A stretch of DNA of 43,328 nt, taken from assembly GCA_037190965.1 (NCBI GenBank), contig JBBCKI010000056.1:1-43328 (forward strand), in the 5' to 3' direction. Both the position numbers and the translations under genes were made by a program. The notes below the pieces were generated by a model. That model ran no database searches. It saw only the letters and a program-made list of their open reading frames with translations, and had not been told where the DNA came from. This DNA is from Chthoniobacteraceae bacterium. Lineage in GTDB: Bacteria > Verrucomicrobiota > Verrucomicrobiia > Chthoniobacterales > Chthoniobacteraceae. This document shows positions 173 through 40,283 of the stretch, piece by piece; position 1 is the first letter of the stretch; each line of letters starts with the position of its first letter.

Positions 173-760
173 CTAGGGCAGAGCGCTTTTGATCGGGATC
201 TGAACCGTGGCGGGAGCCTCTGCGGGCGGGGTGATGGGAATCGGGATCAATCTTGGGGATCCGCTGGCGGGCAACTCGTAAGCGCCGGTTTCAGCAAGGA
301 ATTGTTTGACCGGTTTCGGATCCCTCATGGTGCCATCGACCAGGAAGATCATCAGAACAAGCATCACGACCATGGTCGCGAGGCTGCGCGCTTTTTTCAG
401 TCCAAAGGCGACGATGTAAGGGAGGAGAAGCTGAAAGAGAGTGAGCGCGGAAAGATTCAGGAAGTAAAGCGGGGTGTAGGGGCTCTCTCCTCTCTTATCC
501 AGAAGAAAGGCCGAGGTGACGATGGCAAGCACCAGAAAGAGAAGGGCATGGTCGACGGCAACCTCATCGGGAGGCGCCTCATCGGGCTTTTTGGGACCGG
601 CAGGGCGCAAGGTCACATAGGCGGCAAAAGAACCTCCCAGCGCGAGGAGCGGCCACAGCGGGTAACCATGATCCCGAAAGTCGAACGCATAGCCGACCAA
701 CGCCTGGAGTGCGAATCTTACGCAGGCCAGGAGCAGGATCACTCTGAGGATAAGGTTCAC
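173..760 (-). CDS. Hypothetical multi-pass membrane protein (paralog B of tandem pair)
   Basis: Hydrophobic segments; shares GYPLWPLL, LRP and RGE..TP..FL...LT.FQLL.PY with 778-1317; GTG start at 760 chosen by aligning N-termini. Confidence 0.75.
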   Translation of the reverse strand: MNLILRVILLLACVRFALQALVGYAFDFRDHGYPLWPLLALGGSFAAYVTLRPAGPKKPDEAPPDEVAVDHALLFLVLAIVTSAFLLDKRGESPYTPLYFLNLSALTLFQLLLPYIVAFGLKKARSLATMVVMLVLMIFLVDGTMRDPKPVKQFLAETGAYELPASGSPRLIPIPITPPAEAPATVQIPIKSALP

Positions 761-777
761 GAGATTGGGGCGAACGG

Positions 778-1317: not shown

Positions 1318-1416
1318 AGCTCTTCTTCTAATTAGCAATTCCCAGGCCATCAGGAAAAAGACGCAGGCGGGAGGGCTCTGCATCGTCGGGCGAAGGGTGG
1401 TTGTTAGGCTGAAACG

Positions 1417-3222
1417 ATGGAGTCTTTTGCAGAAAGTCCGAAAATCCGGAAAAGTGTTGTCAAAAATAAGAATTCTCTCGTTTGCGAAACCGAGGGCGCA
1501 AAACAGGGAACCGATGCCGTGGTTTCCATCGCGAGCAGCGCCGCTCTCTGGTTTGCCACGTGTGGAAGGATTCTTACTAAGGACCAGCGATTGGTGCGGC
1601 CTGATCCGAATGTCTACCAGCTTCGCATTCTGGAGGCGTATGAATGGTGCATGACGCACGGGGTTCCGTGTCGCATCCTGGCGCTGAAGCCGAGGCAGAA
1701 AGGGAGTAGCACCGTTAGCGCGGCCATTGTTTACCATCATTGCCGCCGGTTTCGATCCCGCGCGGTTCAGATTGCGGATCGGTACAAGAACTCCGATAAC
1801 CTCTTTGCGATCACCGGCAGGTACGCCGAGAACGACGACTTCCCTTGGGGGACTCGTTGGCAGGCGACCGCGGCGACGGCGAGCCTGACGCAGAATGGAA
1901 AGCTCTGGAGCCGGCTCGACAAAGACACCGCGGAGAATCCGCGCGCCGGGCGTTCCGGAACCTTGCAGGTATTGCACGTTTCTGAAGCGGCCCATTTTCC
2001 CAACGATGGGGAGAAATGCGCGGAAAAGACCATGCTCTCGCTGCTCAATTCGCTGGCCGACGTGCCGCAGAGCGTCGCAATCGTGGAGACGACTGCCAAC
2101 GGTGCGGCGGGTTGGTTCTACGAGCATTGGCTCGGCGCGGCCGATTTTGAAAAATTTGCGGCGGGCGAGCGGGGCAACGGCTGGATTAGGATTTTCGCTC
2201 CGTGGTTCGCCTTCGAGGATGGCCGCGTCGCCTTGACGACCGAAGAGTCGGCGGCGGTGGAAATGAGCTTAAGCGGTCCCGAGCAGCAGGGGCGGACTCT
2301 TTACGGCTGGACTCCGGAGCAGATCGCATGGCGACGCTGGACTCTCGCGCAAAAATGCGGGGGCCGGGAGGATCTCTTCAATCAGGAGTATCCCGAAAGT
2401 GATCGCTCCGCCTTTTTGACCAGCGGCCGCCCCCGGTTTTCGATGCCCGGCATGACGCGGCTGCGCGCCACGGCACGGGTGCGACAGCCCCAGGCCGGGT
2501 TTCTACATCGGCGGGCCGGAGAGGAGATTGTCTTTGAGCCGCATGACGCGGGGTGGGCGCAGATCTGGGAGCCGCCACGGGAAGGAGGGCGTTACCTGCT
2601 CTGGTGCGACACCGCGACGGGGCGGGAGCAGACCCGCGAGAGTCGCAACCCCGACCGCCACTCGGTGCTCGTCTTGCGTGGGCCGTTTGCGGAACCCGAT
2701 GGCACGAACGGCAACGCGATGCTGGTGGCTCGTCTTCGCCCTCCGTGCTTTGACGACTGGCATGTGCTGGAGGAAAAAGTGGTCGCGCTCTGCCTCTACT
2801 TCGGGCGCTGCCTTGTGGGGGTGGAAGTTCCCATGGGGCTGACGTTGCTGGAAGGATTGAGACGGGCGGGGATGCCGCTCTTCAAGCGGCGTTCGGCCGC
2901 CGGAAGCGGGGAGGCGATGGAGCGTCTCGGGTTTCAGACCAACTCGGCGACCAAGCCGCTCGTGATTGCCTCGCTGAGCCGCGCCATCGATGGCGATCCG
3001 CCCCTCGATCTTTACGATCCTCACCTGATCGATGAACTGGGCAGCTTTGTGGTGCACGACGATGGCCGCGAGGCGGCCCTGCCCGGGCGGCACGACGATG
3101 ACGTCATGGCCCTCGCCATGGCGGTGCATCATCTTGGTAAGGCGACCTCCTTTCGTCCCGCCAGAGCCGCCCGGCTGACGAAACCGGCGGATTTGCACAA
3201 ATGGCGTCCGCTGCATCGATAG
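1417..3222 (+). CDS. terL: Phage-type terminase large subunit (ATPase plus RNase H-like nuclease)
   Basis: Walker A-like LKPRQKGSST, GRSGT, Walker B VLHVSEAAHF, coupling motif VETTANG, FNQEYP, nuclease LWCDTATG and C-terminal HDDDVMALAMA; 601 aa uninterrupted. Confidence 0.88.
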   Translation: MESFAESPKIRKSVVKNKNSLVCETEGAKQGTDAVVSIASSAALWFATCGRILTKDQRLVRPDPNVYQLRILEAYEWCMTHGVPCRILALKPRQKGSSTVSAAIVYHHCRRFRSRAVQIADRYKNSDNLFAITGRYAENDDFPWGTRWQATAATASLTQNGKLWSRLDKDTAENPRAGRSGTLQVLHVSEAAHFPNDGEKCAEKTMLSLLNSLADVPQSVAIVETTANGAAGWFYEHWLGAADFEKFAAGERGNGWIRIFAPWFAFEDGRVALTTEESAAVEMSLSGPEQQGRTLYGWTPEQIAWRRWTLAQKCGGREDLFNQEYPESDRSAFLTSGRPRFSMPGMTRLRATARVRQPQAGFLHRRAGEEIVFEPHDAGWAQIWEPPREGGRYLLWCDTATGREQTRESRNPDRHSVLVLRGPFAEPDGTNGNAMLVARLRPPCFDDWHVLEEKVVALCLYFGRCLVGVEVPMGLTLLEGLRRAGMPLFKRRSAAGSGEAMERLGFQTNSATKPLVIASLSRAIDGDPPLDLYDPHLIDELGSFVVHDDGREAALPGRHDDDVMALAMAVHHLGKATSFRPARAARLTKPADLHKWRPLHR

Positions 3223-3231
3223 CCCAGTCCG

Positions 3232-3519
3232 CTAATGGCTCGAAACCTTCCTGATGCGTTTTGCCAACTGGCGGCGGGCTTCCTCGGAAAGCCGTGGCGT
3301 GTAGGTGACGGAATAGTGAATGGAACTGCGATTGGGCGAGGATGGCTGCGGCAAGGTCTCTGCAAAGGAAGCGCGGACATTCTTGGATTCACCGACCTCG
3401 ATGACGTCCCATTGGGAGCCCGTCTGCCGCCAGATGACCCAAATGCCTTTGCGCTGCTTTAAGATGCTTGTATCCGGCCACGGTCCGTCGAACTCGCAGC
3501 CCCATCGTTTGAAAGCCAT
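3232..3519 (-). CDS. Small GIY-YIG-like protein, apparently degenerate
   Basis: KGIWVIW...VIEVGESKNVR resembles the GVY...Y(V/I)GES pattern of small GIY-YIG proteins; ATG 3519 preferred over 3567. Confidence 0.55.
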   Translation of the reverse strand: MAFKRWGCEFDGPWPDTSILKQRKGIWVIWRQTGSQWDVIEVGESKNVRASFAETLPQPSSPNRSSIHYSVTYTPRLSEEARRQLAKRIRKVSSH

Positions 3520-3724
3520 CCGTGTAAGTTCCAGAGGAATTTGGTTGTGGTTTCGGAAGACCGCCACTCAGCAGCCCCTCTGCCTGACGAAAGATAATAA
3601 TATTTTAACCGATTTGAACATGGGGGGAAATACGTACGTCCTGGAATGGGAGAGCCTGATCAGAAAGTCGTGCACTCGCGCACGGGAGTTGCTAGAAATC
3701 TCCCGCTTATTTTCACCTTATCCT

Positions 3725-4804
3725 ATGGCCCGCATTGACACGTTCTTCCGGTTCATGCTTGAGCAGAAGGCATCCGACCTTCACCTCTCTTCCGGCAACC
3801 AACCCATCCTCCGTATCAACGGCGACCTGGTGAGGGTGGATTCGCCACTGCTTGATAACGACGATCTCAAGGCGCTTGTTTACGAGATCGCCCCGGAGAT
3901 CAAGATCAAGCAGTTCGAGGAAACCGGCGATGTCGATTTCGGGTACGAATACCCGGGGGTCGCCCGCTTCCGTGCAAACTTTTTCAACCAGAAGTACGGC
4001 ATTGCGGCGGTGTTCCGTCTGATTCCGAGCAAGGTGTTCACCATGGAAGACCTCGGGCTTCCTCCCGTGCTCAAGAAATTTGCCTCGCTTAAAAAGGGGA
4101 TGGTGCTCGTCACCGGGCCAACCGGCTCGGGTAAATCGACCACCCTGGCGGCGATGGTCGATTACGCCAACCTGCACCGCAAGGATCACATCCTCACGGT
4201 GGAAGACCCGATCGAGTTCGTTCACCGCTCCCAGAACTCACTGGTCAACCACCGCGAAGTCGGCGTTCACACCAAGTCGTTTGCCGCCGCGTTGAGGGGA
4301 GCGCTGCGTGAAGACCCGGACATCATTCTCGTGGGTGAAATGCGCGACATCGAAACCATCGAGCTGGCGTTGACCGCCGCCGCCACCGGTCACCTTGTGT
4401 TCGGCACGCTGCACACCTCCAGCGCTCCGAAGACGATCGACCGTATTATCGACGTCTTTCCCACCAACCAGCAGAACCAGGTGCGCGCCACGCTTTCGGA
4501 ATCGCTCAAAGGCGTCATTGCGCAGAACCTGTTCAAGCGTATCGACAAGCCCGGGCGCGTCGCGGGCCTGGAGATCCTCGTGGTCGACAGCCCCATTGCC
4601 AACCTGATCCGCGAGGCCAAGACGCACCAGATCCCCGGGATGATGCAGGTTGGCAAAAAGAAGGGCAACCAGCCGCTGGATGACGCCATCATGGATCACC
4701 TGCGCGCCGCCCGTATTTCGCCGGAAGAGGCCTATGAAAAGGCGATCGACAAGAAGAAGTTCCGCGCCCTGCTTCAGAACCCGCCGGACGACTGGGACGA
4801 ATAG
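3725..4804 (+). CDS. pilT: Type IV pilus retraction ATPase PilT
   Basis: ASDLHL, GPTGSGKSTT, TVEDPIEF, ALREDPDIILVGEMRD, TGHLVFGTLH; start MARID at 3725. Confidence 0.95.
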   Translation: MARIDTFFRFMLEQKASDLHLSSGNQPILRINGDLVRVDSPLLDNDDLKALVYEIAPEIKIKQFEETGDVDFGYEYPGVARFRANFFNQKYGIAAVFRLIPSKVFTMEDLGLPPVLKKFASLKKGMVLVTGPTGSGKSTTLAAMVDYANLHRKDHILTVEDPIEFVHRSQNSLVNHREVGVHTKSFAAALRGALREDPDIILVGEMRDIETIELALTAAATGHLVFGTLHTSSAPKTIDRIIDVFPTNQQNQVRATLSESLKGVIAQNLFKRIDKPGRVAGLEILVVDSPIANLIREAKTHQIPGMMQVGKKKGNQPLDDAIMDHLRAARISPEEAYEKAIDKKKFRALLQNPPDDWDE

Positions 4805-4831
4805 CATCCTTTCCTCAACCTCCCCGATCTC

Positions 4832-6037
4832 ATGAGAAGACCCGAACTTGACGCGATTCTCGGCGGAATGATCGACTCCCACGATGGGATCTCCGATCTC
4901 GTTTTTGCCGTGGGCCGCCCTTTGCAGGTGGAAGCCCAGGGGGTGCTCCGCCCCGTCCGCACGCAACCTAACATTCCCTCGCTCACCGCTTACCAGATCG
5001 AGAAGATCGCGCTCGTGCTGTTGGGGGAGGATCGCCGCCTCATCGGCGAGCTCCTTCGCACCGGTTCGTGCGATTGCGGCTACGGCCTGAGCGATCAGGT
5101 CCGCTTCCGCGTCAATATCTTCCGGCAGCGAGGCAACTGGGCCATCGTCATGCGGCGCTTGCAGACCGAGATGCCGACGCTGTCGAGCTTGAATCTGCCG
5201 ACGATTTTCGAGGATCTCGTCAACCAGAAGAACGGGCTCATCCTCGTCACCGGAGCCACCGGCAGCGGCAAGACGACTACGCTCGCCGCCGTGCTCAATG
5301 AGCTCAATCTCACCAAGGCCGTCCACGTCGTGACGCTGGAAGACCCGATCGAGTTCATCCACAAGCACAAGAAGGCCACCTTCAACCAACGCGAACTGGG
5401 CTCAGATTTCGACTCGTACCCGAGCGGCCTGCGCGCCGCGCTGCGGCAGGCCCCCAAAGTCATTCTCGTGGGGGAAATGCGTGACCGTGAAACCGTGGAG
5501 ATCGCGCTGACGGCCGCCGAGACCGGCCACCTTGTCTTGAGCACCATTCACACCATCGACGCCGGGCAGTCGATCAACCGCATCATCGGCATGTTTCCGC
5601 GCGACGCGGAGAAGCAGCTCCGGCCCCGGCTGGCGGAAACGCTCCGCTACGTCGTCAGCCAGCGCCTCGCGCCCCGGGAAGGGGGAGGGCGCACGTTGTT
5701 GCTTGAGATGATGGGGAGCAACCTTCGGACCCGGGAGGCCATCACGCTGGGTGAAGGTGAAAACCGCGACTTTTACGACATCATCTCCGACAGCGCCTCC
5801 TTCGGCTGGACGACCTTCGACCAGTCGATAACCCGCGCTTACGACATGGGCCTGATCAGCGAGGAGACCGCGCTCCTCTACAGCACCCGCAAGGGGATCG
5901 TCCAGCGGAACATCGACACGATCAAGAAACAGCGCGGTCTCGGGATCGAGATGAGCAGCGGGTTGCGGCTCGACGGCGCCCCCGCCCCGGCTTCCGATTC
6001 ACCCGCCCCAACCAAACGCGGCCTCTTCGGATTTTAG
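4832..6037 (+). CDS. Second PilT/PilU-family ATPase
   Basis: GATGSGKTTT, TLEDPIEF, ALRQAPKVILVGEMRD, ETGHLVLSTIH. Confidence 0.92.
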   Translation: MRRPELDAILGGMIDSHDGISDLVFAVGRPLQVEAQGVLRPVRTQPNIPSLTAYQIEKIALVLLGEDRRLIGELLRTGSCDCGYGLSDQVRFRVNIFRQRGNWAIVMRRLQTEMPTLSSLNLPTIFEDLVNQKNGLILVTGATGSGKTTTLAAVLNELNLTKAVHVVTLEDPIEFIHKHKKATFNQRELGSDFDSYPSGLRAALRQAPKVILVGEMRDRETVEIALTAAETGHLVLSTIHTIDAGQSINRIIGMFPRDAEKQLRPRLAETLRYVVSQRLAPREGGGRTLLLEMMGSNLRTREAITLGEGENRDFYDIISDSASFGWTTFDQSITRAYDMGLISEETALLYSTRKGIVQRNIDTIKKQRGLGIEMSSGLRLDGAPAPASDSPAPTKRGLFGF

Positions 6038-7165: not shown

Positions 7166-7327
7166 ATGGTGCGGCAGCACCGGTAGCCCGCTCGCGCCGC
7201 GAGCGCGGGATGGGTGAAGAGTCGCGTTTGATGCCCATCCCCGCAGGGAGGGCTGTTATTGTTGGGATGCAGCCCTCGTGAAGCCAAGAGCGTCGATACC
7301 CGCGCTCGACGGCGCGAGCGGGCTACC
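7166..7327 (+). repeat. REPIN-like copy 2 (cap on the opposite end from other copies)
   Basis: Cap atggtgcggcagcacc 7166-7181; core ggtagcccgctcg...cgagcgggctacc 7182-7327; fills a convergent intergenic gap. Confidence 0.95.
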
Positions 7328-7332
7328 GCTCT

Positions 7333-11662: not shown

Positions 11663-11824
11663 ATGGTGCGGCAGCACCGGTAGCCCGCTCGCGCCGTCGA
11701 GCGCGGAGTTTGGCTCTCGTGGCTTCATGGGGGCCGCATCCAACACCAGATAGCCCGTCCTGCGGGGATGGGCGTCAAACGCGAGTCGTCACCCATCCCG
11801 CGCTCGCGGCGCGAGCGGACTACC
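11663..11824 (-). repeat. REPIN-like copy 3
   Basis: Cap 11663-11678, core 11679-11824, spacer in reverse orientation; between convergent mnmE and rfbA. Confidence 0.95.
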
Positions 11825-21089: not shown

Positions 21090-21250
21090 GGTAGTCCGCT
21101 CGCGCCGTCGAGCGCGGGATGGATGAAGAGTCGCGTTTGGCGTCCATCCCCGCAGGACGGGCTGCTGGCATTGGGATGTGGCCTCCGCGAACCACGGAGC
21201 CGATACCCGCGCTCGGCGGCGCGAGCGTGCTACCGGTGCTGCCGCACCAT
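21090..21250 (+). repeat. REPIN-like copy 4
   Basis: Core 21090-21234, cap 21235-21250 followed by a T-tract; between convergent genes. Confidence 0.95.
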
Positions 21251-23752: not shown

Positions 23753-23884
23753 GGTAGCCCGCTCGCGCCGTCGAGCGCGGGTATCGGCTCCCGTGGCTTC
23801 ATAAGGGGCCTCCCCGTCCTGCGGGGATGGGCGCCAAACGCGACTCTTCATCCATCCCGCGCTCGACGGCGCGAGCGGACTACC
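23753..23884 (-). repeat. REPIN-like copy 5 (no cap, internally shortened)
   Basis: 132-bp core versus 144-148 bp in the other complete copies; both GTAG-REP arms intact. Confidence 0.93.
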
Positions 23885-31428: not shown

Positions 31429-31591
31429 ATGGTGCGGCAGCATCGGTAGCACGCTCGCGCCGTCGAGCGCGGGGTCCGGCTGCCGTGGCTTCATAGAACC
31501 TCATCCCAACACCAGCAGCCCGTCCTGCGGGGAATGGGCGCCGAACGCGACTCTTCACCGATCCCGCGCTCGGCGGCGCGAGCGGACTACC
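31429..31591 (-). repeat. REPIN-like copy 6
   Basis: Cap 31429-31444 preceded by an A-tract, core 31445-31591. Confidence 0.95.
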
Positions 31592-33126: not shown

Positions 33127-33289
33127 GGTAGCCCGCTCGCGCCGTCGAGCGCGGGATGGGCGAAGAGTCGCGTTTGACGTTTATCCTTGCAGGATGGGCT
33201 GCTGGGGATTGGGATGCGACCCCCATGAATCCACGGAGGCCGATACCCGCGCTCGACGGCGCGAGCGGGCTACCAGTGCTACCGCACCA
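33127..33289 (+). repeat. REPIN-like copy 7
   Basis: Core 33127-33274, diverged cap to 33289; between convergent genes. Confidence 0.95.
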
Positions 33290-35738: not shown

Positions 35739-35897
35739 GGTGCGGCAGTACCGGTAGCCCGCTCGCGCCGTCGAGCGCGGGTATCGGCTCCCGTGACTTC
35801 ATGAGGCCGCATCCCCATACCGGCAGCCTGTCCTGTGGGGATGGACGCCAAATGCGACTCTCCACCCATCCCGCGCTCGCGGCGCGAGCGGGCTACC
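35739..35897 (-). repeat. REPIN-like copy 8
   Basis: Cap 35739-35752, core 35753-35897; between divergent tex and prmC. Confidence 0.95.
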
Positions 35898-40126: not shown

Positions 40127-40283
40127 GGTAGCCCGCTCTCGCCGAGAGCGCGGGATGAGTGAGGAGTCGCGTTTGGCATCCATCCCCGCCGGATGGGCTG
40201 CGATGGTTGGGACGCAGCCTTTATGAAGCCATGGAGTCGATGCCCGCGCTCGACGGCGCGAGCGGGCTACGGTGCTCCCGCAC
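40127..40283 (+). repeat. REPIN-like copy 9
   Basis: Core 40127-40270 with compensatory arm cgctctc-gcc-gagagcg; degenerate cap. Confidence 0.93.

Follow-up and report, generated by a model that had tools for sequence, protein, structure and literature searches.

A scattered set of phage-head genes inherited by a soil and lake clade of Verrucomicrobia, probably used to pack host DNA into virus-like particles

The window, i.e., the whole stretch of DNA that was analysed, was 43,328 bp in length and represented one whole contig (JBBCKI010000056.1) of the Chthoniobacteraceae assembly GCA_037190965.1 (the source genome, G000). Its terL gene (1417–3222, plus strand) encoded a large terminase of 601 aa without an internal stop. 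The N-terminal ATPase had a Walker A-type motif (KPRQKGSST, residues 91–99), a Walker B motif with E190 (LHVSE, 186–190) and a coupling motif with T226 (ETTANG, 224–229), and the C-terminal RNase H-fold nuclease had D398 (CDTATG, 397–402), E470 and D561 (HDDDV, 559–563). The five motifs from which the initial annotation had recognised an intact ATPase and nuclease were therefore all present. KPRQKGSST, LHVSEAAHF and WCDTATG were unchanged across all 16 close sequences (15 clade copies and one prophage copy), and K91, R93, E190, T226, D398, E470 and D561 were invariant in an alignment of 67 terL homologues.

Assignment to the large-terminase family, as first proposed, was supported by sequence profiles and structure alike. 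The product matched PHROG 2 ‘terminase large subunit’ (E 2.5e-12), a profile built from the 67 homologues matched T4 gp17 over both domains (E 3e-14), and the AlphaFold model (pLDDT 89.5) had T4 gp17 as its top Foldseek match (E 1.3e-22), the best among many terminase matches, with a predicted C-terminal fold matching gp17 nuclease domains. A Pfam scan of the product gave no match, and a single-sequence PDB search returned nothing, so that a profile was needed. Identity to gp17 was 16–17%, with the catalytic acidic residues aligned. The Walker A motif of TerL had the form KxRQxGSST, and not GKT as in gp17; however, this form is common to related prophage terminases, and its deviation is therefore no sign of inactivation. 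The protein thus combined the N-terminal packaging ATPase motifs and the C-terminal RNase H-fold nuclease with acidic triad that are expected of a large terminase.

Both immediate neighbours of terL were on the minus strand, as described previously. Upstream was a divergent membrane-protein gene (778–1317), a host gene without phage family match that adjoined terL in five of the six genomes of the genus, next to its tandem paralogue (173–763, minus strand; 41% identical over 167 aa). Downstream was a small antisense gene (3232–3567, minus strand) with no Pfam or PHROG match, a homologue of which sits between terL and the portal gene in three relatives (G001, G002, and G005); on the basis of this gene order, it is read here as marking a former terL–portal junction. 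Two PilT-family ATPase genes followed (3725–6037, plus strand), and lie outside the set of phage-derived genes described below (the kit). The neighbours of terL varied over 16 loci, with pilT at two, the portal gene directly downstream at three, and purine genes or a 3D-domain gene at others. The adjacency to pilT that the initial annotation had raised was thus not a shared feature of the orthologues, and this neighbourhood is incidental. No phage Pfam family was detected among the 35 other window ORFs scanned, and the three of these run against PHROGs gave no match.

The left break of the contig fell in a dispersed intergenic repeat of ∼135 bp (1–135, no strand assigned) with an internal inverted repeat and 308 BLAST matches on 62 contigs of the source genome, possibly a MITE or REP-like element. 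Further copies in the window were located at 7207–7328, 11663–11799, 21116–21250, 23753–23858, 31429–31565, 33153–33289, 35739–35872, and 40152–40283. Because the contig ends in this repeat, the DNA to the left of the window is unseen in G000. Depth was even across terL and pilT, the contigs did not extend the left end, and relatives carry host genes to the left of terL.

The description of terL as an orphan held locally, since it stands alone in the window, and did not hold for the genome, in which an isolated portal gene, a capsid operon, and a candidate terS were located elsewhere, in line with the scattered loci that had been envisaged. Using the portal of a relative and the split prophage of G002 as queries, three loci were found in G000, each among host genes: an orphan locus with the portal gene and an 89-aa gene after it (C72:59640–61861), a scaffold–capsid–small gene–adaptor operon (C66:16107–20329), and a lysis/fibre cassette (C51:6698–10129). 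The portal was podovirus-type (SU10-type, PF23899) and the capsid protein belonged to Phage_capsid_3, with PHROG or Pfam matches obtained for terL, portal and capsid. In the single-contig genome G170, the capsid gene was at 0.70 Mb, the portal at 1.26 Mb, terL at 2.25 Mb, the TerS candidate at 3.15 Mb and a 73-aa gene at 4.99 Mb, and five separate sites on one contig indicate that the dispersal is no assembly artefact. The kit loci were flanked by housekeeping genes.

The peripheral genes were more variable. The adaptor was shortened to about 150 aa in 11 genomes, an endolysin of the G000 type was full length in four of the 17 clade genomes, and a different lysis-like cluster preceded the head operon in G021. 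An ESM Atlas search with the 89-aa gene returned nothing, and a viral-contig search found no relative with the capsid and five loci at 30–35% with terL. A solo phage-derived 101-aa gene without family match was also present in the source genome (G000:C30:103567–103872); homologues of this gene come last in the head operon of at least eight clade genomes and stand alone in four of the five other genomes of the genus. In genus g8, the head operon (L111–L120) was followed in 10 of 10 genomes by two short same-strand genes, which we take to encode ribosomal proteins L21 and L27 from their appearance.

Among 151 genomes of the family Chthoniobacteraceae, terL was matched in 23, comprising 16 close matches (G000 included) and seven at 27–38%. 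The close orthologues were 69–82% identical to the query and came from three genera (6 of 6, 9 of 10, and 1 of 1 genomes); the gene was whole in 14 of the 16, cut by a contig end in G169, in two pieces in G166, and was not found in the clade genome G165 (90% complete). The 17 genomes formed one clade with a support of 100 in an rpoB+secA tree of 29 genomes, G003, which had neither gene, being placed by genus only. Capsid (80–93%) and portal (60–78%) were detected in all 17, and outside the clade the family had just three distant capsid and six distant portal matches. Instead of the patchy, prophage-borne pattern that would have contradicted the initial annotation, terL was clade-wide (16/17), and its closest matches were these orphan orthologues, ahead of a prophage copy (65%).

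The terL, portal and capsid trees followed the host tree, sharing 9 of 11 (14 taxa), 12 of 13, and 9 of 13 splits with it, respectively, compared to at most 3–4 for 1,000 random trees. One conflict between gene trees and host tree recurred, namely the position of G036. In both the terL and the portal tree, the prophage copy of G002 fell outside the clade, with weak support (57 and 67). On the host tree, dN/dS was 0.075 for terL, far from the value near 1 expected of decay, 0.078 for portal and 0.042 for capsid, compared to 0.048 for secA and 0.024 for rpoB; six pairwise terL values were 0.09–0.20, and G003 was left out of the dN/dS analysis. By itself, a low dN/dS is also compatible with an active phage; taken together with the dispersal and the congruence of the trees, it indicates that the kit is almost certainly domesticated and maintained by the host.

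The same data bear on the suggestion that TerL was repurposed alone as a host translocase or nuclease, e.g., with the adjoining type IV pilus genes. The gene is monocistronic and beside pilT in the source genome, which would suit such a role, yet the pilT link was as rare as stated above, the portal gene lay directly downstream at three loci, and terL was co-distributed and had co-diverged with portal and capsid. Because of this co-inheritance, the stand-alone reading is unsupported, and we consider it very improbable.

Prophage debris, or a fragment of a prophage created by the assembly, is a further explanation for a terL located 1.4 kb from a contig end, in a genome with two real prophage regions and in a clade in which one genome is devoid of terL and another has a split copy. 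However, the head and tail genes of these prophage-like regions (G000:C34:1450–37100 and C62:15000–43500) were unrelated to the scattered kit, and both regions were rejected as the source of terL because their terminases were unrelated and G000 contained a single terL match. Given also the dispersed parts in G170, the host-matching trees and the low dN/dS of terL, debris is the least credible of the explanations considered here, and the initial annotation was right to set it aside.

Relatives of the kit do occur as prophages. One in a clade member had terL at 65%, capsid at 77% and portal at 53% identity. The prophage at G002:C7:94000–151453 (L019, L051, and L052) was related to the kit, had terS downstream of terL, and was interrupted by host-like genes over about 17 kb. 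The prophages G002:C7, G514 and G485 had homologues of the terL, portal, scaffold, capsid, adaptor and lysis genes of the kit. Unlike the kit, such temperate podovirus-like Verrucomicrobiae prophages were clustered and had replication or recombination genes as well as very large probable internal or ejection proteins (1,367–2,240 aa). When 138 structural-region proteins of related prophages and loci were compared with G000, no such very large proteins were found, and few of the tail proteins had matches outside its two prophages. Similarly, searches of G004, G036 and G170 did not reveal the 1,367-aa prophage protein, and a tail-like gene (313–335 aa), confined to a single genus in which all 10 genomes had it, was without a match in G000. 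In the single-contig genome G514 (C1:5.61–5.89 Mb), three related prophage-like sets were observed, one of the portals being separated by 260 kb from the closest capsid and terL; this portal-separated set is possibly in the course of breaking up.

Beyond the family, 12 of 401 sampled genomes of the class matched the TerL profile strongly. A second set was identified in family f48, in two of 34 genomes belonging to two genera and in none of the 32 genomes of a third genus. In these two small genomes, terL, portal and a capsid operon were on three contigs in housekeeping surroundings (L359, L360, L361, L362, L323, and L324), the capsid operon including an 810-aa gene, a 134-aa head protein and a 430-aa gene. 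The f48 TerL was 45–46% identical and formed a separate branch in a quick tree, the support labels of which are unreliable after re-rooting. These observations suggest that this phage family was captured a second time, as seen in two genomes only.

A candidate small terminase gene (TerS candidate; G000:C30:19890–20354) was first flagged by a promoter scan. Searches of G000, G004, G036 and G170 with phrog_51 and the TerS of the G002 prophage gave no clear TerS, although a match at E 0.09 later proved to be this candidate, which was also the best of 3,724 G000 proteins for two of four prophage TerS queries (E 0.004 and 0.007). Of the 17 clade genomes, only G169 (76% complete) lacked the gene, and none of four outgroups had it. 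The gene came after two phage-derived genes in G001, G002, and G005, and was itself followed by lysis genes in G002.

The profile phrog_645, labelled ‘Rnase E’, was matched by 62 of the 63 members of the candidate family, the G000 protein spanning profile positions 66–146 of 196. A search with one distant relative yielded 22 phage records, including six annotated as ‘terminase small subunit’ and four as ‘Rnase E’; two phages carried both labels in twin records. In phage Lilbeanie, the related gene directly preceded and overlapped terL. Out of 65 profile matches, the 38 longer distant ones were scanned: 37 matched phrog_645 and 24 had an N-terminal HTH-type Pfam match, compared to 0 of 63 in the clade family. 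From the HTH plus helical core, the gene position before terL and the twin-record annotation, PHROG 645 appears to be a small-terminase family. The candidate was modelled as a helix-hairpin-helix. Two results spoke against the assignment: fold searches lacked specificity (helical hairpins in the PDB, with a best Z of 7.5; a best E of 0.25 in BFVD), and alignment to four prophage TerS with hhalign gave a probability of 8%. The ESM Atlas lead was the T5 TerS family at 0.88. A tblastn match in phage ZL12 (E 3) was discarded as chance, being on the opposite strand to the annotated gene, and a viral-contig search with P0217 found none. The TerS of the G002 prophage had an extra N-terminal region that the candidate lacked. 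From its family matches, the gene likely encodes a small terminase devoid of the N-terminal DNA-binding domain. The TerS of RcGTA, the gene transfer agent (GTA) of Rhodobacter capsulatus, also lacks a DNA-binding helix-turn-helix, and the available text of PMC6854486 proposes loss of this domain as the cause of random packaging.

A putative terL promoter (1354–1410, plus strand) consisted of an upstream box, GAAAAAGACGC, located 63 bases ahead of the ATG, and a −10-like TAGGCT (1405–1410). The portal and scaffold upstream regions had in common an ATTTKRCGC-like box some 63 bases ahead of the start, and a box model trained on one locus placed 15 of 15 and 14 of 17 regions of the other locus in the top 10% relative to G000 upstream regions. 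With a two-element model (box and −10) trained on the portal, the top 5% of background was reached by 12 of 15 scaffold regions, by 10 of 16 terL regions, nine of these ten being from one genus, and by none of the 17 regions of the operon-internal capsid gene; the data had been seen before this model was built, and the position of some windows was extrapolated. In G000, it ranked the portal 1st, the lysis cassette 5th and the scaffold 7th of 3,677, while the terL site shared the register of the portal promoter but was degenerate and reached only the top 27% of background. The box alone recognised 2–4 of 16 terL upstream regions and was found in none of six TerS-candidate upstream regions. An earlier model with a fixed TGC element was abandoned, as it left the terL upstream regions unrecognised. 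A response-regulator gene (G000:C29:86902–87522) ranked 3rd of 3,689 in that first model, at the portal/scaffold offset, and low in the second.

In 4.2 Mb, a palindrome, GGTGTAWTACACC, had exactly two occurrences: one preceded the 73-aa gene (C19:97239), the other a two-gene operon (C64:74251). The palindrome was ahead of the 73-aa gene in 16 of 16 host-locus copies and 0 of 4 prophage-like copies, and ahead of the gene pair with the TerS candidate in three of three cases. The 73-aa gene was matched in exactly the 17 clade genomes of the 151, the G001 matches being weak prophage-like copies only. From its distribution, the palindrome is a putative operator before two further phage-derived loci, and we infer from the two motifs that the kit would be under two tiers of control, an early one that is repressed and a late one that is activated. 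Two near-copies of the palindrome, 27 bp apart, were also located between genes at G000:C59:53909–53948, ∼0.8 kb upstream of a 128-aa ORF, a possible autoregulated repressor locus.

Taken together, the comparative genomics show that the common ancestor of the three Chthoniobacteraceae genera captured a podovirus-derived kit from a prophage, and that the parts of this kit then became scattered to at least five host loci and were passed on by vertical descent. Upon induction, one promoter type, recognised here as a motif, would drive portal, scaffold–capsid–adaptor and terL. By analogy with RcGTA gp1, the TerS candidate would load TerL on host DNA largely irrespective of sequence, and TerL, judging from its modelled T4-like fold, would cut, dock on the portal and fill proheads by headful packaging, a logic taken from RcGTA as presented in the available text of PMC6854486 and PMC7947584. 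The particles would leave by lysis, carrying random host DNA in the manner of a GTA. Thus, this soil and lake clade of Verrucomicrobia probably uses its scattered phage-head kit to pack its own DNA into virus-like particles. The dispersed GTA-like system envisaged in the initial annotation gained support from the portal, the scaffold–capsid–adaptor operon, the likely TerS and the lysis cassette found at other host loci. The reading that we favour, with moderate confidence, is a GTA-like system under host regulation that packages host DNA by the headful; the missing delivery proteins keep this well below the near certainty attached to domestication.

Three of the six GTA criteria in the available text of PMC9662315 correspond to what was found in the clade. 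The terL, portal and capsid matches point to Caudoviricete-derived particle proteins; the five G170 sites with host flanks agree with full endogenisation, often at several loci; and, apart from the G036 conflict, inheritance was vertical with host co-diversification. The other criteria given there are a whole genome that cannot be packaged, packaging of mostly random host DNA, and delivery of this DNA to other cells; the kit loci are megabases apart, making co-packaging implausible, and the lack of an HTH in the TerS candidate bears on random packaging only indirectly. No clustered module with integrase or replication genes and no patchy presence, as expected of a prophage, was found. In the open-access literature, no described GTA in Verrucomicrobiota was found. 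Compared to the 17-gene cluster of RcGTA, with terS beside terL and a tail (PMC6854486 and PMC7947584, as far as their available text goes), the SU10-type portal and the Phage_capsid_3 capsid imply that the kit was captured independently.

The closest working analogue of the kit is the podovirus-like FpGTA of Faecalibacterium, which, according to the available text of PMC12946183, likewise has a podovirus-like TerL, portal, scaffold and capsid and a possible TerS without DNA-binding domain, and a second locus with structural and lysis genes that is missing in some strains. No tail is visible on FpGTA particles, which nonetheless package host DNA (PMC12946183, available text). Unlike the kit, in which the parts are each at their own locus, FpGTA has terS, terL, portal and capsid in one 10.5-kb operon; it also belongs to a different phylum, and its particles and packaged DNA have been demonstrated (PMC12946183, available text).

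The nature of the conserved core, which comprises head and packaging proteins, with ejection and most tail proteins not found, allows other uses to be considered. The kit could form a head-only viriform, in which the terminase, with a TerS without DNA-recognition domain, the portal and the capsid at separate loci are run by a two-tier regulon and the ejection and most tail proteins have been shed; this is put forward tentatively. Essentially tail-less, DNA-filled heads could alternatively borrow the tail and ejection proteins of related podoviruses, comparable to tail-borrowing satellites, or act as a decoy diverting the packaging of these phages onto host DNA, i.e., as satellite-like transfer or defence. 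The closely related prophage residing in a clade member would provide such a helper; however, a lysis cassette with the kit promoter type in G000, the position of lysis genes after the TerS candidate in G002, the apparently tail-less FpGTA that packages host DNA nonetheless (PMC12946183, available text), and the possibility that diverged tail genes have been missed make this dependence less probable still. The intact nuclease and motor, with no delivery apparatus recognised, might also point to programmed self-destruction, in which the terminase would fragment the chromosome into heads for suicide, nutrient or eDNA release with no gene delivery. PBSX offers a comparison for such a suicide mechanism. 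Nevertheless, a capsid kept at 80–93% identity with its dN/dS of 0.042, and a retained adaptor, are beyond the needs of killing, and self-destruction is improbable. GTA-like packaging of host DNA hence remains the preferred interpretation.

If the ejection proteins are truly absent, the kit would represent a new use of a phage head, and, if the head-only reading is true, heads filled with host DNA would take their tails from related phages or have a role different from transfer. The TerS candidate without DNA-binding domain provides an independent test of the domain-loss route to random packaging, while the promoter box and the operator are handles for inducing and detecting particles. Verrucomicrobiae may have domesticated one podovirus family on two occasions, in this clade and in the two f48 genomes. 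Finally, because fully fragmented kits escape both prophage and GTA finders, such systems may be much commoner than has been counted.
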